The translations under genes and the position numbers were made by a program. The notes beneath the pieces were generated by a model. It was not told where the DNA came from and did no database searches. It saw nothing but the letters and a program-made list of their open reading frames with translations. 64,000 bases of DNA, from NCBI GenBank assembly GCA_028699255.1, contig JAQVUX010000001.1:228733-292732 (forward strand), written 5' to 3'. Each line of letters opens with the position of its first letter. The first letter of the stretch is position 1. The stretch is from Candidatus Omnitrophota bacterium (GTDB lineage Bacteria; Omnitrophota; Gorgyraeia; 2-01-FULL-45-10). Shown piece by piece: positions 29,329 through 64,000 of the stretch.

Positions 29329-30532
29329 TTTCTCTACTCTATCACTTCGGTTACAACCCCGGCGCCTACTGTGTGGCCGCCTTCGCGTATGGCGAAGCGC
29401 AGTTCCTTTTCCATGGCTATCGGGGTTATGAGCACTACTTCGAACTGGACGTTGTCGCCGGGCATTACCATCTCAACATCTTTCGGGAGGGTAACTACGC
29501 CGGTAACGTCGGTAGTTCTGAAGTAGAACTGCGGTCTGTATCCATTAAAGAACGGCGTATGACGGCCGCCTTCTTCTTTACTTAATATATACACTTCTGC
29601 TTTGAACTTCGTGTGAGGCGTGATCGAACCGGGCTTGGCGAGTACCTGGCCGCGCTCAAGATCGGTCTTTTCAATGCCCCTTAAGAGAACGCCTATGTTG
29701 TCGCCGGCCTGTCCTGAATCGAGGAGCTTTCTGAACATCTCGACGCCTGTTACAACGCTCTTCTTGGTCGGCTTTATACCTACTATCTCTATCTCCTCGC
29801 CTACCTTTATGATACCGCGTTCGACCCTGCCTGTTCCTACTGTGCCGCGGCCTGTGATGGAGAATACGTCTTCTATGGGCATAAGGAACGGCTTATCGAT
29901 GTCGCGTTTAGGTTCGGGGATGAATGTATCGCACGCTTCCATAAGATCCATGATAGGCTTTACCGCATCCGCGTTATCGGCCTGGGTCATAGCCTTAAGG
30001 GCGCTTCCTCTTATTACAGGGGTCTTGTCCCCGGGGAAGTTATACTTGGTCAGAAGCTCTCTTACTTCGAGTTCGACTAAGTCTACGAGTTCTTTGTCTT
30101 CTACTAAGTCTACTTTATTGAGAAATACCACTATTGAAGGAACGTTGACCTGACGGGCCAAGAGGATGTGCTCTCTTGTCTGAGGCATCGGGCCGTCTAC
30201 AGCGGATACTACGAGGATAGCTCCGTCCATCTGGGCGGCGCCTGTGATCATGTTCTTAATGTAGTCGGCGTGGCCCGGGCAGTCGATGTGCGCGTAATGG
30301 CGCTTCTCTGTTTCGTATTCGACGTGCGCGACCGCTATCGTTACGGTCTTGGTTTCGTCACGGACGGTACCGCCTTTGGCGATATCGGCGTAGCTTTTAA
30401 CCGTGGCCTTGCCCTTCTTCGCGAGAGTAGCAAGTATAGCCGCCGTAAGAGTAGTCTTGCCGTGGTCGATGTGGCCGATGGTGCCTATATTGACGTGCGG
30501 CTTGCTCCTTACAAAATTTTCCTTTGCCATAA
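29320..30532. repeat. tuf repeat copy 1: 1213-bp segment nucleotide-identical to 44558..45770
   Basis: Sampled lines across both copies are identical base for base. Divergence begins 2 nt upstream of ATG and immediately after the stop. Confidence 0.8.
29334..30530 (-). CDS. tuf: Elongation factor Tu (copy in the str operon)
   Basis: [26 protein letters not shown]. 398 aa. Confidence 0.95.
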
Positions 30533-44566: not shown

Positions 44567-45770
44567 TTTCTCTACTCTATCACTTCGGTTACAACCCCGG
44601 CGCCTACTGTGTGGCCGCCTTCGCGTATGGCGAAGCGCAGTTCCTTTTCCATGGCTATCGGGGTTATGAGCACTACTTCGAACTGGACGTTGTCGCCGGG
44701 CATTACCATCTCAACATCTTTCGGGAGGGTAACTACGCCGGTAACGTCGGTAGTTCTGAAGTAGAACTGCGGTCTGTATCCATTAAAGAACGGCGTATGA
44801 CGGCCGCCTTCTTCTTTACTTAATATATACACTTCTGCTTTGAACTTCGTGTGAGGCGTGATCGAACCGGGCTTGGCGAGTACCTGGCCGCGCTCAAGAT
44901 CGGTCTTTTCAATGCCCCTTAAGAGAACGCCTATGTTGTCGCCGGCCTGTCCTGAATCGAGGAGCTTTCTGAACATCTCGACGCCTGTTACAACGCTCTT
45001 CTTGGTCGGCTTTATACCTACTATCTCTATCTCCTCGCCTACCTTTATGATACCGCGTTCGACCCTGCCTGTTCCTACTGTGCCGCGGCCTGTGATGGAG
45101 AATACGTCTTCTATGGGCATAAGGAACGGCTTATCGATGTCGCGTTTAGGTTCGGGGATGAATGTATCGCACGCTTCCATAAGATCCATGATAGGCTTTA
45201 CCGCATCCGCGTTATCGGCCTGGGTCATAGCCTTAAGGGCGCTTCCTCTTATTACAGGGGTCTTGTCCCCGGGGAAGTTATACTTGGTCAGAAGCTCTCT
45301 TACTTCGAGTTCGACTAAGTCTACGAGTTCTTTGTCTTCTACTAAGTCTACTTTATTGAGAAATACCACTATTGAAGGAACGTTGACCTGACGGGCCAAG
45401 AGGATGTGCTCTCTTGTCTGAGGCATCGGGCCGTCTACAGCGGATACTACGAGGATAGCTCCGTCCATCTGGGCGGCGCCTGTGATCATGTTCTTAATGT
45501 AGTCGGCGTGGCCCGGGCAGTCGATGTGCGCGTAATGGCGCTTCTCTGTTTCGTATTCGACGTGCGCGACCGCTATCGTTACGGTCTTGGTTTCGTCACG
45601 GACGGTACCGCCTTTGGCGATATCGGCGTAGCTTTTAACCGTGGCCTTGCCCTTCTTCGCGAGAGTAGCAAGTATAGCCGCCGTAAGAGTAGTCTTGCCG
45701 TGGTCGATGTGGCCGATGGTGCCTATATTGACGTGCGGCTTGCTCCTTACAAAATTTTCCTTTGCCATAA
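44558..45770. repeat. tuf repeat copy 2: 1213-bp segment nucleotide-identical to 29320..30532
   Basis: Same evidence as copy 1. Confidence 0.8.
44572..45768 (-). CDS. tuf: Elongation factor Tu (copy in the tRNA-Thr/secE/nusG operon)
   Basis: Protein 100% identical to the 29334..30530 copy. Confidence 0.95.
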
Positions 45771-55413: not shown

Positions 55414-55487
55414 GCGGGAGTAGCACAATGGTAGTGCAGTAGCCTTCCAAGCTACCTACGTGGGTTCGATTCCCATCTCCCGCTCCA
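55414..55487 (+). tRNA. tRNA-Gly (anticodon TCC)
   Basis: GCGGGAGTAGCACAATGGTAGTGCAGTAGCCTTCCAAGCTACCTACGTGGGTTCGATTCCCATCTCCCGCTCCA. Confidence 0.85.
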
Positions 55488-55609
55488 TCTAACTTCAACA
55501 AGTCAGGGAATCGAAGCCGAATTTTCCGCCGAGCGATTAGCGAGGAAAAGCGCTATGCGCGACAGGAAATTCGGCTGGCCCGAAGCGAGGCCTATGGCCG
55601 AGCGAAGGG

Positions 55610-55629
55610 GATTCCCATCTCCCGCTCCA
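55610..55629 (+). repeat. 20-bp direct repeat of the tRNA-Gly 3' end (GATTCCCATCTCCCGCTCCA), 122 bp downstream of the tRNA
   Basis: Exact 20-mer match to 55468..55487. The intervening sequence is not tRNA-like. Confidence 0.6.
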
Positions 55630-55633
55630 TACT

Positions 55634-57385: not shown

Positions 57386-57775
57386 CTATTTAGCGAATAA
57401 AACCATCAGTTGTTTCGAAATAACAAATCCGACAAATACCAGCACCACACCTAATGTATTGGTAGCGATGATATTCATTATGGCAACTTTGATTTGCCCG
57501 TCCTTGAATAAATGGAAGTTTTCCAGGCTAAAGGTAGAGAATGTTGTGAAGCCACCCAAAATACCCACGAACACAAAAACCCTTACCTGGGATGGTACGG
57601 CAAAGCGCTCGAATAACCCCCACAAAAAACCTATAACCAGAGATCCCAAAAGATTTACGATTAAAGTATTGACCGGAAAGAGGTGATTTGAAAATCTATG
57701 TTCAACGCCAGATAGAAAATATCTGGACATCGTTCCTACTGCGCCGCCTAAACCTATAACAAAAAACCTTAACAT
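57386..57775 (-). CDS. crcB: Fluoride ion channel CrcB/FluC
   Basis: LGGFTTFSTFSLE signature. ATG at 57775 sits 8 nt after an AGGAGA ribosome-binding site. Confidence 0.85.
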   Translation of the reverse strand: MLRFFVIGLGGAVGTMSRYFLSGVEHRFSNHLFPVNTLIVNLLGSLVIGFLWGLFERFAVPSQVRVFVFVGILGGFTTFSTFSLENFHLFKDGQIKVAIMNIIATNTLGVVLVFVGFVISKQLMVLFAK

Positions 57776-57795
57776 AGACAATTCTCCTATTTTTA

Positions 57796-57850
57796 GTAGG
57801 AGTCATCGGCCGTGTTAAGGCGGTTAAAGGCGAACTCCATCGCCCATGCT
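57796..57850 (-). promoter_or_regulatory. Fluoride riboswitch (crcB RNA motif) in the crcB leader
   Basis: Minus-sense GGGCGATGGAGTTCGCCTTTAACCGCCTTAACACGGCCGATGACTCCTAC matches the fluoride aptamer consensus (GGnGAUGGnGUUCGCC...AACCGCC...GAUGAnUCCUAC), directly upstream of crcB. Confidence 0.75.
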
Positions 57851-57866
57851 ATTAAAACCTGATATT

Positions 57867-58725: not shown

Positions 58726-58810
58726 CAGGTCTTTTTCAAAAACACCGGTTATGCTTCGCTTATCGCCTTAGTTCTCTTTTCAGGAATTACTTTATTGAAA
58801 AAGGAACGCC

Positions 58811-58850
58811 GCAGTTATCCACAAAGTAGTGCACACTTAAGGGTGCACTA
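58811..58850 (-). repeat. Hairpin element copy 1: conserved AGTTATCCACAAAGTAG (contains perfect DnaA-box TTATCCACA) + 11-bp-stem hairpin + CTACTT
   Basis: Plus-strand agttatccacaAAGTAGTGCACacttaaggGTGCACTACTTgc. Shares a 17-nt flank and the stem bases with 59904..59935, while the stem interior differs with compensatory changes. Confidence 0.55.
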
Positions 58851-58867
58851 CTTGCTTGCATGTTCGG

Positions 58868-58880
58868 TTGGTGGTGAGGG
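58868..58880 (-). repeat. 13-bp direct repeat of the tRNA-like 3' end at 63320..63332 (TTGGTGGTGAGGG; minus-sense CCCTCACCACCAA)
   Basis: Exact 13-mer occurring twice in the window, with a similar tgtt..g context at both sites. Chance expectation in 64 kb is about 0.002. Confidence 0.5.
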
Positions 58881-58905
58881 TTCGCCTCGAACTGAAAAGA
58901 TACTG

Positions 58906-59082
58906 TTATTTCAATGAAAAAGGCACATTAACATGCATTGCCACCTCTTCCTTCGCCGAGACTTTGCTTACTGGAAAATTATTTGCACAAAAATTAACGA
59001 ACTCGACATACTCGGCCATGGGAAGCCAACCGTTCTTCTCAGGAAATTTTCCGACCGGCAGCCTTAGTTCGTCTTTTCTCAT
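58906..59082 (-). CDS. Hypothetical 58-aa protein, translationally coupled to the upstream nucleotidyltransferase
   Basis: MRKDELRLPVGKFPEKNGWLPMAEYVEFVNFCANNFPVSKVSAKEEVAMHVNVPFSLK. ATG overlaps the nucleotidyltransferase stop as ATGA. No family recognised. Confidence 0.35.
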   Translation of the reverse strand: MRKDELRLPVGKFPEKNGWLPMAEYVEFVNFCANNFPVSKVSAKEEVAMHVNVPFSLK

Positions 59083-59633
59083 TTCTTAAATACTCCTAGA
59101 ATGTCATTGTAAATTTCTTTTGTTCCGAATTTCAGACAGATACCTTTAAATTCTTCGCCTTCAAAATCAATATTGTTCATCTTTATAAGCTCTATTATGT
59201 CGGGCAAATCTTTCAATAACCTGTTCTTTGCCCCGTGCTTTATAGCGTGAAGCTTGAGCGCAATTAAATGATTAAGGGATGGAACAACTAGCTCCATGCC
59301 CGCAATAGTTGTTTTCTGGCCTTCCCGCAATATCTTATCTCGCGTAGCCTCATCTACAATCATAAAGTCTATATCCACTGTATCTTTTGCGCTCGACATG
59401 CGCACGGCCACATTCGTAGCGAAATTTTCGGCGTATCCGGCTTCGCTTAGTATCTTTTCGATTTTTTTAAAATCATCTTTCGTCATCAAAAAATCAACAT
59501 CACGAGTACCGCGCGTAACCTTATAGAAATTTACCGCAAAACCACCTATAAGTATACATGGTACAGCCGTTTTTCTTGACGCCTCAGCAACAAGGTGAAA
59601 TACCTTTGAATAATCCATTGACATATTATACAA
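59079..59633 (-). CDS. Minimal nucleotidyltransferase, aminoglycoside 2''-adenylyltransferase (ANT(2'')/AadB)-like fold
   Basis: VPCILIGGFAVNFYKVTRGTRDVDFLM resembles the ANT(2'')-Ia segment PLWIGGGWAIDARLGRVTRKHDDIDLTF (GG...GRVTR...DxD). 184 aa versus 177 aa for AadB. Similarity is recalled from memory, not searched. Confidence 0.5.
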   Translation of the reverse strand: MYNMSMDYSKVFHLVAEASRKTAVPCILIGGFAVNFYKVTRGTRDVDFLMTKDDFKKIEKILSEAGYAENFATNVAVRMSSAKDTVDIDFMIVDEATRDKILREGQKTTIAGMELVVPSLNHLIALKLHAIKHGAKNRLLKDLPDIIELIKMNNIDFEGEEFKGICLKFGTKEIYNDILGVFKK

Positions 59634-59687
59634 GGAAAATTATAAAAACGGAAGGAGAATGATTATGCGGAACCGGAACGATTTTTT

Positions 59688-59888
59688 TTATGCTTTTTGA
59701 CGGAACTTAATAACGATATCCCTCGCGCCTTTGCGAATAGCACGCCTGCCTTCTGCTATGGTCTTGAGCAGCCACGGGTCACTCGACTCCTCCTCTATTT
59801 CAAGCTGCTCCGGCAGGGGCAGAAAGTCGGGTATTCTTACTAGCTTACCGATTGGCATATCATAATCGATTTTGCGCTTCGTTTTCAT
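59688..59888 (-). CDS. Hypothetical small protein (66 aa from the ATG; the ORF-track start at 59903 is a TTG inside the repeat element)
   Basis: MKTKRKIDYDMPIGKLVRIPDFLPLPEQLEIEE... Immediately downstream of hairpin element copy 2. Confidence 0.35.
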   Translation of the reverse strand: MKTKRKIDYDMPIGKLVRIPDFLPLPEQLEIEEESSDPWLLKTIAEGRRAIRKGARDIVIKFRQKA

Positions 59889-59903
59889 AAAAGTTATCCA
59901 CAA

Positions 59904-59935
59904 AGTAGCTGACGTTTAAAACGTCAGCTACTTAC
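59904..59935 (-). repeat. Hairpin element copy 2: AGTTATCCACAAAGTAG + 14-bp-stem hairpin + CTACTT (perfect DnaA-box TTATCCACA)
   Basis: Plus-strand agttatccacaAAGTAGCTGACGTTtaaaAACGTCAGCTACTTac. Lies between the nhaP2 stop and the small ORF start. Confidence 0.55.
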
Positions 59936-59941
59936 TTCACC

Positions 59942-61414
59942 CTATTCACCATCATTCTTTTTAAGCTGCGCCAGTGTTTTTTGAAAATCCGAAAAATCTG
60001 CAGCATTCGCAAGTACCAGCATAACATCGCCGCCTTCTATGGCCACGGATCCAGACGGTATTATAAATTTGTCATTTCTAGAAATAAGCATAATAAGACA
60101 TTTCTCTGGGACATTTAAATCGCTGATTCTCTTGCCTTCCGCCTGCGAATTATACGGCACAATAGCTTCCGTTAATTCCGCATCGATGCCTTCTGTTTTT
60201 TCAAATTCTATAGGATAATTCCTCCTATAGGCCACCGGCACATCCAGTTTCAATAATTTAGAAATAAACGGAATGGATGTTCCTTGAATAAATACTGACG
60301 CGATAACGACAAAGAATACTATATTAAAATAAACATCCGCCCGCGGAATACCCGCCATAAAAGGGAACGTCGCGAGGATAATCGGGACCGATCCTCTTAA
60401 GCCGACCCATCCGATCATAATTTTTTTGCGCATACTCATCTTAAATGGCAATAGACACAGCATTACGCTGACCGGACGGGCTACTACCATCAAGAGAAAT
60501 GTAAGTAATAGTCCCGCCCCTATCAATGGGACTATATGTGAAGGGAAAACGAGCAGTCCCAGTGTAACAAACATAGTGATTTGCATGAGCCAGGCCAAGC
60601 CGTCGTGAAATTTCATAATCATCTTTTTATTGGGAAATTCCGCATGACCCAACATTAGACCCGCTATATATACCGCGAGGAAACCGTTGCCCTTCAAAAA
60701 AACGGCAATCACATACGTTAAAATAACAAGAGAGATCATCAGCGCTAAATAGAGCCCTTCGTATTCCAATTTCAAACGGTTGATAAAAAATATGATAAAT
60801 CTTGCCGATAGATACCCTATAAGGGCGCCTACGCCCATATCGAGGGCAAATTTTGGGATGAGGAGAGCGATATTTGACCCATTTGCCGCAATAATGCCTA
60901 TAAATCCTATGGTCAAGAAAACAGCCATCGGGTCATTACTGCCGGATTCAAATTCGAGTAGAGGCTTAAGGGGGCTTCTTAGACTTATACGTTTGGATCT
61001 CAGTATACTGAACACAGCGGCGGCATCTGTTGAGGAAACTATAGAACCTAGAAGCATTCCTTCAAGAAAAGAAAACTTCAGAATATATACAGCAAAAAAC
61101 CCCGTTATGATAGCGGTCAACAATACTCCAACTGTGGATAGAATAACTCCCGGCAAGACAACAGGCTTAGTTTCCTTCCAGCTTGTGTCCAACCCGCCGG
61201 AAAAGATAATGAACATTAGGGCTATAACGCCTATGGATTTCGCTAATTGCGCGTTATCGAAATAAATACCACCGATACCTTCCGATCCGGCAAGCATACC
61301 GACCGCCAAGAATAGCAGCAAGGCAGGTATAGCAAATCTATCCGAGAGCTTGCTCGAGACAACGCTCACGAATATCAATACCGCAACCCATAATAATATA
61401 TATTCGATCTGCAT
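59942..61414 (-). CDS. nhaP2: K+/H+ (Na+/H+) antiporter, NhaP2/CPA1 family with C-terminal TrkA-C-like domain
   Basis: 490 aa with about 12 transmembrane helices. FESGSNDPMAVFLT motif. Cytoplasmic C-terminal regulatory domain. Confidence 0.8.
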   Translation of the reverse strand: MQIEYILLWVAVLIFVSVVSSKLSDRFAIPALLLFLAVGMLAGSEGIGGIYFDNAQLAKSIGVIALMFIIFSGGLDTSWKETKPVVLPGVILSTVGVLLTAIITGFFAVYILKFSFLEGMLLGSIVSSTDAAAVFSILRSKRISLRSPLKPLLEFESGSNDPMAVFLTIGFIGIIAANGSNIALLIPKFALDMGVGALIGYLSARFIIFFINRLKLEYEGLYLALMISLVILTYVIAVFLKGNGFLAVYIAGLMLGHAEFPNKKMIMKFHDGLAWLMQITMFVTLGLLVFPSHIVPLIGAGLLLTFLLMVVARPVSVMLCLLPFKMSMRKKIMIGWVGLRGSVPIILATFPFMAGIPRADVYFNIVFFVVIASVFIQGTSIPFISKLLKLDVPVAYRRNYPIEFEKTEGIDAELTEAIVPYNSQAEGKRISDLNVPEKCLIMLISRNDKFIIPSGSVAIEGGDVMLVLANAADFSDFQKTLAQLKKNDGE

Positions 61415-61464
61415 AGTATCCGACTCTTTTCCTGACCGTTATATATTATACATCCGTAGACCCA

Positions 61465-62913
61465 CTAATCGCAAAACAAGAAATTCTTAAACGACCATAT
61501 ATTTTTCCTGTCAAGGCATAGGTTGGGATTTTCCTTAAAGAAGATCTGGTAATTCTTAAGCGGCGTCCAGTCTGAAGGAGTTGACGCTAATTTTCCCAAA
61601 TATGGGCGCGCGATATTAAGAATATACTCATACGGAAGATCATCCGGCATACATACCCCTTTTTGCGGATTTTCCAGCATCCACATAACAGCCGAAACTG
61701 CGCCGATAGCTACCTGTATCGTCGTAGCGTTCTGATGGGGAACGAGCCTGCGCGATTCTTCTATACTGAGTATACTTCCAGTCCACCAGGAGTTATACCT
61801 ATGCCCCATGATAAGCGCTCCAAGTATATCATCGCCTCCGACGATCTCGTCGTTCATGATCCTTAGGTTTTTCTGGAGATCGTAATTCCTGCTCCTTAGC
61901 TCATAAAGAGACGTTATCGTTTCATTGCAAGGCATATACGCGTAATGCACCGTAGGGCAATAAACTATTTTCCCATTCTCTCTGACGGTAAGATGATCGG
62001 AGATGCTTATCGCCTCTGCATGCCTTATGACCATACCGATGATCTCCTCATTGGGAACCCACGACCGTACCCATGTATTCATCCCCATCTGGGACAGGAA
62101 TATTTGATTTTTACCATTTGCAGGCGGGAACGTTGAGAATAACGGTATGTCGGTCTCGTGGGTACCCCATCCCATTTCCGCGGGGGCGATGCCTTCCTCC
62201 CTCAATCCCTCGATGCTCCACGTACCCACGAATTCATTATACCTTTTGGGTCTATTTGTAATCTGAGTATCGTGTTCGCTTATATGGATGACCTTGACAC
62301 CCAGTTCCTTCGCTAAATGAGAAAATATCTTTGCCTTAAGGCATTCTTTGATTTTGTGTTTTATCTTGGGCGAAAGATTGTCCTCGCTTATTAATTTCTG
62401 GGCGATATCGGCTAGACCCTTCTTTGTAAAATGAGATATGAGCCCCGGATTGGCTCCGTGGTCTAGGATCGCTGTTGTCTTTGGGTCTTTCCATCGTGAT
62501 GTAATCTTCTGTATCTCTTTCTGACGATAGTAGAGGGATTTCTGAAAAGGGGTTTTATTGTGTATATCCGCATAAGGATCCCACTGCTCTACAGACGTAT
62601 TGATGTATAAAACTTTATTCTCGTGGCACCAGCTTAGCATTTCAATACAGTCTATATTCCATGAAAGGTCTATTATTATACCGCCGGGAGAAACGTGCTC
62701 CGACAAGATTTGCGAAAGATTGAGAGGAGTGATCTTTTCCTGGAAAAATTTCACTCCACGTCTTATATAGGGCGAGAGCGCTTTTCTTTTATCTACAAAA
62801 TCTAATATTGTAATATTTTTATACGGTATGGAGATGTGTTTGAGAAGAATGGGTAAAGCGCAGCGGGCTACTGATCCGTAACCAATCATTAAAACTTTAT
62901 TTTTAAACGTCAT
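61465..62913 (-). CDS. hss: Homospermidine synthase (bacterial type, saccharopine-dehydrogenase fold)
   Basis: Multiple blocks match recalled Blastochloris HSS: GYGSVARCALPIL, VGTWSIEGL, EMGWGTHE, VRSWVP, ISISDHLTVR, VHYAYMPCNE, LSIEESRRLVPHQNATTIQV, DWTPL. 482 aa. Confidence 0.75.
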   Translation of the reverse strand: MTFKNKVLMIGYGSVARCALPILLKHISIPYKNITILDFVDKRKALSPYIRRGVKFFQEKITPLNLSQILSEHVSPGGIIIDLSWNIDCIEMLSWCHENKVLYINTSVEQWDPYADIHNKTPFQKSLYYRQKEIQKITSRWKDPKTTAILDHGANPGLISHFTKKGLADIAQKLISEDNLSPKIKHKIKECLKAKIFSHLAKELGVKVIHISEHDTQITNRPKRYNEFVGTWSIEGLREEGIAPAEMGWGTHETDIPLFSTFPPANGKNQIFLSQMGMNTWVRSWVPNEEIIGMVIRHAEAISISDHLTVRENGKIVYCPTVHYAYMPCNETITSLYELRSRNYDLQKNLRIMNDEIVGGDDILGALIMGHRYNSWWTGSILSIEESRRLVPHQNATTIQVAIGAVSAVMWMLENPQKGVCMPDDLPYEYILNIARPYLGKLASTPSDWTPLKNYQIFFKENPNLCLDRKNIWSFKNFLFCD

Positions 62914-63320
62914 GATATCATTGCCCTCCTTGTATGGGTTTTAAACAAAAAAAACACTCCGTCCCACATGGACAAAGTGGTTTTACAAAGAGAGCAAGAT
63001 GTTAAGTGATATCCTCCTTTTGTTTATCATGATACTATAATTTTAACACAAAATTCTTAAAGATCAAATTTTTTCGACTGACCTTATATAAACAAAAAAA
63101 CCTACACAAGACTGATAGACTTACGAAGTTTTTACTTTTTTATAGTCTAAGATTTACACCCTCCTAGCTAGGGATTGTCTCAATTTTGTTTAAGTGTAGC
63201 GCATTCCCTTATTTTGTCAACTCAACAGGAACTAATTCCAATAGTTTCTTATTAAAGTCTAAAACCTCAATATCACATAACTCATTTATATCGTTAAAGT
63301 TATGCAATAAATCTGTTAAG

Positions 63321-63414
63321 TTGGTGGTGAGGGAAGGATTCGAACCTTCGAAGGCTTGCGCCGTCAGATTTCAAGTGCCCCCAGGTTACCCCGGGGCTTG
63401 GACTATCTCATCAC
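63321..63414 (-). tRNA. tRNA-Tyr-like element: 3' half (anticodon loop, variable arm, T-arm, acceptor, CCA) canonical; 5' half non-canonical (possible pseudo/partial tRNA or interrupted gene)
   Basis: Minus-sense ...CTTGAAATCTGACGGCGCAAGCCTTCGAAGGTTCGAATCCTTCCCTCACCACCA is close to the E. coli tRNA-Tyr 3' half. A 5' GGTGATG 94 nt upstream pairs 6 of 7 with the acceptor, but no D-arm or anticodon stem can be drawn. Confidence 0.4.
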
Positions 63415-63559
63415 CATGGCTTACCAATATTCTGATAAACTTTAGGCGGCGGGCGCTTAGTCTCTGCACCTTCAATGAGCTAAAAAAATAAGCTCAAGGC
63501 TTGGCTCAGGATTCCCCTTACCGTTTTTGCGTTAAGGGCTCCCCTGAATTCACCCGCTT

Positions 63560-63985
63560 TTACACCCCGAATTTCTTCGAGGCGCTGCGTTCACCACAGT
63601 CTGATCCATTTGACCGCTTTGGTACCTCACCACATTCGTTTATATAGGCATCGATCCAGTCTCTGATTATGCCTAATAATTTTATATCATTGTAGCGTAT
63701 ATGAACAAGACCGTAAAGCAATTTTCTATCGCTATTGTTTGAGCTTCCGACTCTAATATACGGTTTTGTGAATTGCTCCTTAGGTATCGCGGTAACATTA
63801 CACCAATAATTTTTCAGCTTTTCGATATCCTGATACTCGTAAGCATATAAATAAACCCGCAGACGCCTGTCATCTACGCCACATATTTCGCGCAAGAATT
63901 TTAAAAATATTTTGACCATCCGCGGATCGCTATTGGCAAAATCTACGGTGGACCTTTTAAGCGTTCCTTCCGCCCAATAAAGCAT
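63560..63985 (-). CDS. Hypothetical protein, possible single-motif LAGLIDADG-like homing endonuclease (N-terminus may extend beyond window)
   Basis: Upstream in-frame codons to the window edge read KIAGV before MLYWAEGTLKRS...DPRMVKIFLKFLREICGV. The pattern is reminiscent of LAGLIDADG followed by a conserved hydrophobic helix. Weak. Confidence 0.3.
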   Translation of the reverse strand: MLYWAEGTLKRSTVDFANSDPRMVKIFLKFLREICGVDDRRLRVYLYAYEYQDIEKLKNYWCNVTAIPKEQFTKPYIRVGSSNNSDRKLLYGLVHIRYNDIKLLGIIRDWIDAYINECGEVPKRSNGSDCGERSASKKFGV

Positions 63986-64000
63986 TACCCCTGCTATCTT

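Follow-up and report, generated by a model that had tools for sequence, protein, structure and literature searches.

The subject of this study is a 64,000-nucleotide stretch of a Candidatus Omnitrophota contig, called here the window, and in particular a 4.4-kb islet of five open reading frames (ORFs) at positions 58869-63321, between a tRNA-Tyr gene and the gene of a SpoU methyltransferase. The islet is probably a non-autonomous, recombinase-less member of a family of tRNA-Tyr-specific genomic islands in Omnitrophota, of a cis-mobilizable type. The copy in the window has kept both ends of attachment-site (att) type, and recombination genes are absent from it.

The anchor of the islet is a tRNA-Tyr(GUA) gene on the minus strand (63322-63631) that contains a group I intron and encodes its CCA end. 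A preliminary description of this DNA had spoken of a tRNA-Tyr-like element; the gene is a real tRNA-Tyr(GUA), split by the intron, and its CCA ends at 63322 and not, as was stated there, at 63321. The same description had reported a 13-mer repeat of the tRNA 3' end at 58868-58880, and this observation holds. Two copies of the 13-mer TTGGTGGTGAGGG, and no more, are present in the 64-kb window (58868-58880 and 63321-63333), both on the plus strand; about 0.03 matches would be expected by chance with one mismatch allowed, and none of 100 shuffled sequences contained two copies. A G precedes both copies (58867 and 63320), which extends the exact identity to 14 nucleotides (nt), and a repeat finder extended the similarity to 25 of 32 nt (58861-92 versus 63314-45). 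The 12-mer CCCTCACCACCA (58869-80 and 63322-33) is the recombination core common to the genomes compared. The rarity of the repeat was also borne out in relatives, in which the 12/13-mer was seen only within tRNA-Tyr and its partial copies.

The sequences on both sides of the distal core copy were compared with those of other genomes. An exact look-up of the sequence of the islet's nucleotidyltransferase (NTase) gene returned three further contigs from other samples. One of these, L157, carries homospermidine synthase (hss), antiporter, s66, NTase and s58 genes in this order and is colinear with the window over 4.25 kb (63114-58869, 92.6% nucleotide identity); L158 aligns to 60462-58869 at 96.9% and L159 to 60187-58869 at 99.2% nucleotide identity. 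The alignments of all three contigs break off at 58869, the base with which the repeat closes, and each contig runs on for 39-160 nt. Past GTTCGAGGCGAACCCTCACCACCA, the window continues with ACCGAACATGC toward the SpoU gene, whereas L157 and L159 continue with GTATTAA...GATGGATTCG..AAAAAGGGG. The latter sequence is the trailer that directly follows tRNA-Tyr in L059 and L052, and the post-repeat DNA of L157 matches the L059 trailer at about 86% over 160 nt, starting from the first base. L157 and L059 are an occupied-site and empty-site pair from different genomes, which come from metagenomes and not from isogenic strains. The window's own junction to the SpoU gene is found with 100% identity in an independent Logan assembly (L001). 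Because an independent assembly reproduces it, and because contigs assembled at k=141 (L159 and L160) cannot be mis-joined via 12 nt, we regard this junction (site A) as a true recombination junction. The geometry of a tRNA-targeted element, which had been proposed at the outset, is thereby seen in full: an intact tRNA gene is followed by cargo and a partial repeat, and L157-L159 break at 58869 next to different DNA.

A metagenome scan with the last 24 nt of tRNA-Tyr yielded 120 loci, about two dozen of which carry an Omnitrophota-type tRNA-Tyr. The upstream side of the latter is conserved (pdxJ, acpS, nnrD, then tRNA-Thr), and what stands on the downstream side varies greatly. In both L052 and L127, tRNA-Gly and the response-regulator/MoxR cluster, which occupies 46-55 kb of the window, are found some 0.5 kb from tRNA-Tyr. 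In L093, nothing but a fluoride riboswitch and crcB separates tRNA-Tyr from tRNA-Gly. The distance from tRNA-Tyr to crcB or tRNA-Gly-p54878 is 0.1-0.6 kb in these three loci, and the interval is therefore a variable hotspot. At other loci this position is taken by MNT-HEPN, BrnT-BrnA, a DUF4062 ATPase or a resolvase. Synteny around the SpoU gene, compared at 32 genome loci, was uninformative except for L008, since the SpoU homologues were at most 74% identical and none had tRNA-Tyr, hss or the antiporter gene upstream. The window's own SpoU protein has a counterpart of 100% identity in a Candidatus Omnitrophota MAG. Exact look-ups of the SpoU and hss sequences for a longer contig returned only a 4.4-kb Logan contig or nothing.

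The islet shares its two ends with other blocks of DNA at this position. On the left, the tRNA CCA is directly followed by a conserved block that we call type A. Homologues of this block, 73-98% similar to one another, follow a copy of the tRNA-Tyr 3' end in L055 (twice), L061, L110, L045, L069, L160 and L180, and this block is repeatedly found after a core, be it that of the tRNA or that of a right end. Pairwise differences among eight type A copies are distributed as 77/36/204 over the three codon positions, and the ratio of synonymous to non-synonymous codon differences is 128/117 in frame versus 22/216 and 9/226 out of frame. For the corresponding peptide, (D/N)I(K/N)ELCEIEVLDL(S/N)K, neither a start codon nor a ribosome-binding site is evident. 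Gene callers applied to other samples fused type A with the tRNA or with the right-end motif into ORFs of 59-91 amino acids. We rejected the notion that the roughly 78 nt after the tRNA are an ancestral chromosomal trailer, which would contradict insertion, because the same block stands directly after right ends in L160, L055 and L180 and also opens a block with the same right-hand module. An apparent resemblance of the left-end block to EF-Tu was a coincidence of fuzzy matching.

On the right, members of the family end in the motif (G)AGTTAAGTTCG-N7-CCCTCACCACCA, which keeps the spacing of the tRNA itself (GTTCG-7 nt-CCCTC). The motif GTTCG-N7-CCCTCACCACCA differs from the tRNA in the 7 nt that make up the T-stem, and for this reason we assign the right end to the element (its P arm) and not to a decayed chromosomal tRNA. 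The islet's own version, GTTCGAGGCGAA, travels with the islet in the other contigs and so belongs to it. The 7-nt spacers of the right ends are not consistently palindromic. The motif was found in the tRNA-Tyr/tRNA-Gly neighbourhood of L008, L055, L121, L160 and L180, each time at the end of a different gene block. It is positioned 9.7 kb after the tRNA in L055 and 2 kb after it in L121, follows a ParE module in L180, and is present in three to four copies in L160 and in two in L008. In L055, a right end and core are followed by a second type A block. In L160, a block with the same ends and other cargo consists of type A, a 2434-amino-acid protein, hairpin-TTGTGGATAACT, a small ORF, an NTase gene (83%), s58 and a degenerate right end. 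A right end of the window type (20/20 nt) is fused in L180 to a left end that is also of the window type (97.7% over 88 nt), so that the two ends meet at the core; since the upstream gene is a different one (ParE), a tandem junction is a more likely explanation than an excised circle. The serial motifs of L160 and L008, together with the arrangements in L055 and L180, represent tandem accretion at one site. DNA beyond the right end of the islet, toward the SpoU gene, also resembles the family (Table 1); the alignment scores are low, and the resemblance is no more than suggestive of a remnant of an older element.

The gene adjoining the right-end motif in L008 (JAQUSB010000025.1) bears on how such elements might move. 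L008:533-2350 encodes a 605-amino-acid large serine recombinase with Resolvase, Recombinase and Zn_ribbon_recom domains, whose best NCBIfam similarities are to CcrB, CcrC and XisF, far below the cut-offs (CcrB, 95 bits versus 900). The gene ends on two tandem right-end motifs, and its ORF runs through both. Scans of viral contigs with the tRNA 3' end and the right-end motif gave no matches, and with the L008 recombinase they gave only recombinases of 23-30% identity; no second pairing of a recombinase with the motif was seen in the fetched loci or in the viral contigs. No integrase is present upstream of tRNA-Tyr, where nnrD/acpS/pdxJ and tRNA-Thr are located. Because L008 has the sole recombinase found beside the motif, and because its element is cut by the contig start, we put the chance that an L008-type recombinase acts on the family ends at about even. 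The possibility that attP lies inside the recombinase gene and that the left-end block is the C-terminus of its product is not supported: a search of 1.8 billion proteins with the 40-amino-acid translation returned only three short ORFs (59-91 amino acids) and no long recombinase, and no more than 2 of the 8 copies are spaced in frame with the core.

One mechanism that would account for these arrangements is as follows. The segment 58869-63321 is probably an integrated element, whose family would have the 3' end of the Omnitrophota tRNA-Tyr gene as its insertion site. A serine recombinase would exchange strands at or within the 12-nt core, the predicted point of crossover. By supplying CCTCACCACCA, the element would rebuild the tRNA exactly, and the core would be duplicated at the far end, where the element's P arm and core would be left. 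The left end opens with the 7 nt ACTTAAC, whose reverse complement, GTTAAGT, stands at the right end; this applies to the window's tRNA junction and to the L008 and L160 flanks. Given this complementarity, the two sequences would form a dyad in the excised form, GTTAAGT-N22-ACTTAAC, with its centre close to where the core begins, and this dyad would have the shape of a serine-integrase attP. The junction of an excised circle should read GTTCGAGGCGAA-CCCTCACCACCA-ACTTAACAGATTT, and the empty site should read tRNA-Tyr 3' exon-CCCTCACCACCA-ACCGAACATGCAAGC. Elements of the family may be integrated, and perhaps excised, by a recombinase like that of L008, which the window copy would have lost or never possessed. 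The window copy would then either be fixed or depend for its movement on a recombinase provided in trans or on accretion with an autonomous element next to it. The preliminary description had left the choice between a decayed island and a different mechanism; the islet is best explained as a non-autonomous family member, one relative of which (L008) has a recombinase by the same end motif.

The base composition of the islet is atypical for the host genome. The GC content of 58881-63320 is 41.3%, versus 48.6% for the rest of the window. When GC content at third codon positions (GC3) was scored against 56 background genes, the NTase (z = -4.0), antiporter (-2.5) and s58 (-2.2) genes were atypical and hss mildly so (-1.4); the genes for SpoU, the M54 peptidase and the CDF transporter are normal. 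Across the islet genes, z-scores for GC3 and codon use span about -1.4 to -4.0. The cargo named in the preliminary description (hss, nhaP2 and a nucleotidyltransferase module) was supported by Pfam and NCBIfam matches. Its features are listed in Table 1.

Table 1. Features of the islet, its tRNA-Tyr anchor and its flank, in window coordinates.
Feature	Position	Strand	Remarks
tRNA-Tyr(GUA) 5' exon, GGTGAGGTACCAAAGCGGTCAAATGGATCAGACTGT	63596..63631	-	100% identity to the 5' half of intronless tRNA-Tyr in L045, L048, L061 and L071
Group I intron of 224 nt, separating U35 from A36 of the anticodon	63372..63595	-	RF00028; junction set by the ARAGORN-accepted splice
tRNA-Tyr 3' exon, CCA encoded	63322..63371	-	Last 12 nt (63322-63333), CCCTCACCACCA, form the attL-side core
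Conserved left end (type A block)	63209..63321	-	Starts with ACTTAAC (63321-63315) directly after the tRNA CCA; contains DINELCDIEVLDFNKK
AT-rich hss leader	62914..63208	-	Promoter-like site 63067-63040; terminator-like hairpin and T-run 62979-62955, before the hss start
hss, homospermidine-synthase-type saccharopine dehydrogenase, 482 amino acids	61465..62913	-	Pfam PF03435, PF16653
K+/H+ antiporter of the NhaP2 type with TrkA-C domain, 490 amino acids	59942..61414	-	Pfam PF00999, PF02080; NCBIfam NF003716, 604 bits versus cut-off 355
Hairpin followed by TTGTGGATAACT, start of the conserved right-hand module	59892..59933	-	Same place in L157-L160
Small ORF s71, 66-71 amino acids, antitoxin-like	59688..59903	-	Nucleotide similarity to the BrnA-like region of L044 and, in L180, to a 67-amino-acid ORF that precedes a ParE toxin gene
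Nucleotidyltransferase (NTase)	59079..59633	-	Pfam NTP_transf_5 / DUF2204 / weak AbiEii; PADLOC AbiEii, E 1e-6
Small ORF s58, 58 amino acids	58906..59082	-	4-nt overlap with the NTase stop; always accompanies NTase
Islet right end (attR side)	58869..58892	-	GTTCGAGGCGAA, then core CCCTCACCACCA; mimic of T-loop to CCA, spaced as in the tRNA
Possible remnant of an older family element, most of it deleted	58787..58868	-	ACCGAAC start (compare ACTTAAC); copy of hairpin-TTGTGGATAACT at 58813-58853; s58 3'-end-like at 58787-58807

Homologues of hss in Omnitrophota are up to 94% identical and carry the JGI name homospermidine synthase, each in a different genomic context. Homologues of 87-91% identity occur in three unrelated contexts and never beside the antiporter gene; hss is therefore not fixed at this locus, and the synteny of hss alone is unable to test whether the islet is a unit. 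The promoter-like site in the hss leader has the form TTGATC-16-TAAAAT with a TG, and it is followed, some 40 nt ahead of the start codon, by the hairpin with its stretch of 8 T. The hairpin and T-run that L157 has at this place are different ones, which suggests that hss is regulated by attenuation; the leader (62955-63067) has no Rfam match. Together, hss and the K+/H+ antiporter plausibly confer a trait of polyamine and ion homeostasis. The right-hand module begins with the hairpin-TTGTGGATAACT 16-mer, of which there are only two copies in 64 kb (59892-59933 and 58813-58853). TTGTGGATAACT contains a perfect DnaA-box-like TGTGGATAA, and the stems of the two hairpins differ by compensatory changes. 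No family matched s71 in profile searches. Homologues of the NTase gene follow tRNA-Tyr in L048 and closely precede tRNA-Gly in L160 and L175, and in both the window and L160 the s58 stop is located 9 codons upstream of the core and in the frame of the core. The s71, NTase and s58 genes probably form a toxin-antitoxin-like stabiliser; the NTase itself is of a toxin-antitoxin-like or abortive-infection-like type.

Several observations weigh against the conclusion that the islet is a recombinase-less member of a mobile family. In agreement with the earlier remark that no integrase is present, none of the five ORFs matched a recombinase family in searches that included Pfam, NCBIfam and PADLOC, and tblastn of the L008 recombinase against the window found nothing. 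A recombinase stands beside the motif in 1 of about 180 fetched loci (L008), and there the element is cut by the contig start. The NTase-s58 pair is present in the same neighbourhood of the distant relatives L160 and L175, so that some of the block may have resided here for a long time and not have arrived recently. The hss gene is only mildly atypical in composition and is common at other Omnitrophota loci. L157-L159 and L180 are short contigs that come from metagenomes, and neither a same-species empty site nor an excised circle was found among the sequences compared. The empty site that had been envisaged, with the tRNA directly abutting the SpoU gene, was not seen in any locus compared; relatives have tRNA-Tyr beside tRNA-Gly or crcB.

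One alternative explanation is that the interval is a flexible genomic island whose blocks are swapped by homologous recombination, for example after DNA uptake, through the repeated core plus type A (about 110 nt), with no site-specific recombinase involved and the right-end motif merely inherited. Every block opens with a type A sequence similar enough to provide usable homology, most blocks have no recombinase, and the flanks are conserved (nnrD/acpS/pdxJ upstream and the MoxR/Bat cluster downstream), all of which would suit such exchange. The breakpoint in L157-L159, however, falls exactly at the end of the 12-nt core and is not scattered through the type A homology. The tRNA-like spacing of the right end and the GTTAAGT/ACTTAAC dyad are kept across unrelated cargos and look like a protein-binding site, and a large serine recombinase adjoins the motif in L008. 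We consider homologous exchange unlikely for these reasons.

A second alternative, that the distal repeat is the scar of a small non-coding insert, has less in its favour. Inserts of 150-250 nt, among them a structured element of about 105 nt, duplicate the 3' ends of tRNA genes in this clade, and the genes between the repeats could have come later, in which case the 4.4 kb would not be one element. Such inserts, with perfect duplications of 20-21 nt, are present behind tRNA-Tyr in L052, L059, L066, L069 and L099, and the window's own tRNA-Gly has one (55468-88 / 55610-30). These small inserts keep the true T-stem CGAATCCTTC, however, whereas site A has the family-specific GTTCGAGGCGAA, and no core of the 105-nt element is found near site A, the single nhmmer match in the window being at 55505-55608. 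The NTase-s58 pair stands alone after tRNA-Tyr in L048 and the right-hand module is shared with L160, where the other cargo differs; the block is therefore modular. Against a piecemeal origin stands the colinearity of the whole 4.25 kb with L157, and we regard the scar explanation as very improbable. Finally, the idea of a chance match or assembly artefact in ordinary core genome, which could appeal to the shortness of the core (12-14 nt) and to the chimeric nature of some contigs of metagenome-assembled genomes (MAGs), is effectively refuted by the low expectation and the shuffles, by the junction in L001, by the k=141 contigs L159 and L160, which a 12-nt repeat cannot join, and by the loss of colinearity at the same window base in three independent contigs.

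The closest described parallel to the islet is provided by the ssrA genomic islands (ssrA-GIs) of Dehalococcoides, tandem islands that lie downstream of the tmRNA gene and are bounded by the 3' end of the gene or a direct repeat of about 20 bp (McMurdie et al. 2011, PMC3146451). A conserved motif just upstream of the repeat, not alignable with the gene itself, places the crossover in or near the T-loop (PMC3146451). The integrase is a large serine recombinase of the CcrB family, and 15 islands without an integration module were read as cis-mobilizable (PMC3146451). The likeness extends to the stacking, the repeat, the upstream motif, a candidate serine recombinase, the module-less islands, the low GC and the variable cargo. 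Unlike the ssrA-GIs, the family described here targets tRNA-Tyr and not tmRNA, belongs to the phylum Omnitrophota and has an identity block of 12 and not 20 nt. The sole recombinase seen is located at the distal (attR) end and co-oriented with the tRNA, whereas that of Dehalococcoides is at attL, on the reverse strand and in a six-gene module. The blocks have a left end with codon-like conservation and often end in a toxin-antitoxin or defence gene. Homology of the recombinase to the Dehalococcoides type was compared at the family level only, by the NCBIfam CcrB scores given above (95 bits versus 900).

The staphylococcal cassette chromosome elements (SCCmec and pseudo-SCC) use the large serine recombinases CcrAB or CcrC for insertion at the 3' end of rlmH, and some cassettes have no ccr. 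They resemble the islands at tRNA-Tyr in targeting the 3' end of a conserved gene, in forming tandem composites split by short direct repeats and in including members without a recombinase. The SCC target is a protein-coding gene. No small ccrA-like partner and no resistance cargo were seen here, where the family is known from sequence alone. Cis-mobilizable elements (CIMEs) of the ICESt1/ICESt3 type are flanked by att sites, are without recombination and transfer genes and would move when an autonomous element comes in and accretes with them. The islet is like a CIME in its att-type ends and in the absence of recombination or transfer genes. CIMEs are defined against conjugative elements with tyrosine integrases, however, and no conjugation or transfer module was seen in the relatives. 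Prochlorococcus tycheposons are tRNA-targeted cargo elements that leave partial tRNA repeats and build variable islands in genomes without classical transfer machinery. They have their own recombinase and genes for replication or packaging, none of which is present in the islet. There is also some likeness to integron cassettes, which are arrays of recombinase-less blocks that each end in a conserved recombination site. The interval differs from an integron in lacking an intI/attI platform and attC-type hairpins, in having multi-gene blocks with their own promoters and in its tRNA anchor. Some of what is said here of SCC is covered in PMC3146451, where the CIME concept is also cited; CIMEs are listed in PMC5704250, and tycheposons are the subject of bioRxiv 10.1101/2020.12.28.424599.

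The anchor gene itself has an unusual structure. ARAGORN, run on the unspliced window sequence, called no tRNA at the position of tRNA-Tyr, and Rfam RF00028 matched 63379-63602 on the minus strand (85 bits, E 4.6e-21, threshold 50). When 63631-63596 was joined to 63371-63322, the resulting 86-nt tRNA-Tyr(GUA) was folded and accepted by ARAGORN, and the spliced exons were the same or nearly the same as the uninterrupted tRNA-Tyr genes of related metagenome contigs. Once spliced, the tRNA is complete and canonical, and the gene looks functional. Homologous introns were confirmed with Rfam in L044, L069, L089, L121 and L046, and in L066 the 3' end of an intron was recognized by sequence. Overall, the intron is present in 6 of about 24 related tRNA-Tyr loci, the rest being intronless, and the exons are identical. 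Group I introns have been reported in bacterial tRNA-Leu, fMet, Ile2 and Arg genes, and we found no report for tRNA-Tyr in the literature.

Directly upstream of intron-containing tRNA-Tyr genes is a family of ORFs of about 195 amino acids with an HTH-like N-terminal part and no match in Pfam or PDB. In the window, the ORF is located at 63560-64000 on the minus strand and runs off the window end; its relatives are at about 280-875 in L089 (65% identity) and at 1788-2600 and 5318-5926 in L046 (54%). In L044 a GIY-YIG nuclease (1033-1287) occupies the spot of this ORF, and a GIY-YIG ORF is also located upstream of one intronless tRNA-Tyr allele (context of P0362). The ORFs upstream of intron-containing tRNA-Tyr look like candidate free-standing homing endonucleases. 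A by-eye assignment of the 195-amino-acid ORF to the LAGLIDADG endonucleases was discarded, as it was backed neither by Pfam nor by sequence and profile searches of PDB. In L046 (oriented copy, 2714-2900), the 3' exon that closes the tRNA-Tyr gene with the intron is a variant, CCCTGCCCACCA, and a second, perfect 50-nt copy of the 3' exon follows about 117 nt past it. It looks as if the intron was inserted together with a donor 3' exon, thereby displacing the resident 3' half.

Other tRNA genes of the neighbourhood have been sites of insertion as well. In the tRNA-Gly(UCC) region of the window (55414-55630, plus strand), the last 21 nt of the gene (55468-55488) are repeated perfectly at 55610-55630. 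The structured element of about 105 nt lies between the two copies, and its 5' arm, GGGAATCGAA, is the reverse complement of the tRNA T-loop and T-stem. Relatives have 18 copies of this element, which follow genes for tRNA-Thr, -Gly, -Tyr and -Ser; the 5' arm of every copy is adapted to the cognate T-arm (five T-arm types), and most copies end in a repeat of the 3' end of that tRNA. Some are in tandem (L074). RNAalifold predicted 24 pairs, 14 of them with compensatory changes, and there was no Rfam match. In the window, tRNA-Gly with its trailing element (55414-55487, plus strand) is inverted relative to the response-regulator/MoxR cluster, with which it is co-oriented in six relatives (L008, L052, L093, L127, L160 and L175). 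Partial duplications of the 5' part of tRNA-Gly (about 34 nt), with inserts of about 130 nt before the full gene, were seen in L066 and L175 and are a further kind of small tRNA-gene insertion in the clade.

A fluoride riboswitch (57790-57853, minus strand, 60 bits) precedes crcB (57386-57781, minus strand), which is atypical in composition (GC3 z = -2.8). Since crcB is the sole gene between tRNA-Tyr and tRNA-Gly in L093, it may be a separate mobile unit. Elsewhere in the window, two ORFs of 398 amino acids (29334-30530 and 44572-45768, minus strand) share an identical 170-nt stretch that is EF-Tu (tuf)-like. The second of them has tRNA-Thr before it and tRNA-Trp after it, as in the classical tRNA-tufB arrangement.

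A broader interpretation, which we offer as a speculation and regard as doubtful, is that the interval from tRNA-Tyr to tRNA-Gly might be a tRNA-anchored capture platform, integron-like in its logic, in which recombinase-less multi-gene blocks would be stacked by a serine recombinase acting in trans. The left end of the blocks would be under protein-like purifying selection, its reading frame being completed only across a recombined junction, and the right end would mimic the tRNA from T-loop to CCA. The 105-nt mini-elements would then ride on this or a related machinery as another class of passenger, a non-coding one.

No general concept is changed by these results, since the architecture has already been described for the Dehalococcoides ssrA islands and for SCC elements; what is new is the phylum and the target. 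Omnitrophota is an uncultured phylum, in which we found no described mobile elements of this type. The element ends help explain why assemblies break in these regions, and they can be used as search patterns for flexible gene content across MAGs, including genes for polyamine synthesis, ion transport, toxin-antitoxin systems and defence. If the pairing of the recombinase with the site is true, a new tRNA-specific serine integrase with short, defined att sites would be at hand. With an attachment site in the last 12 nt of tRNA-Tyr, recognisable ends and a candidate large serine recombinase, the family provides a testable route for gene flux in Omnitrophota.

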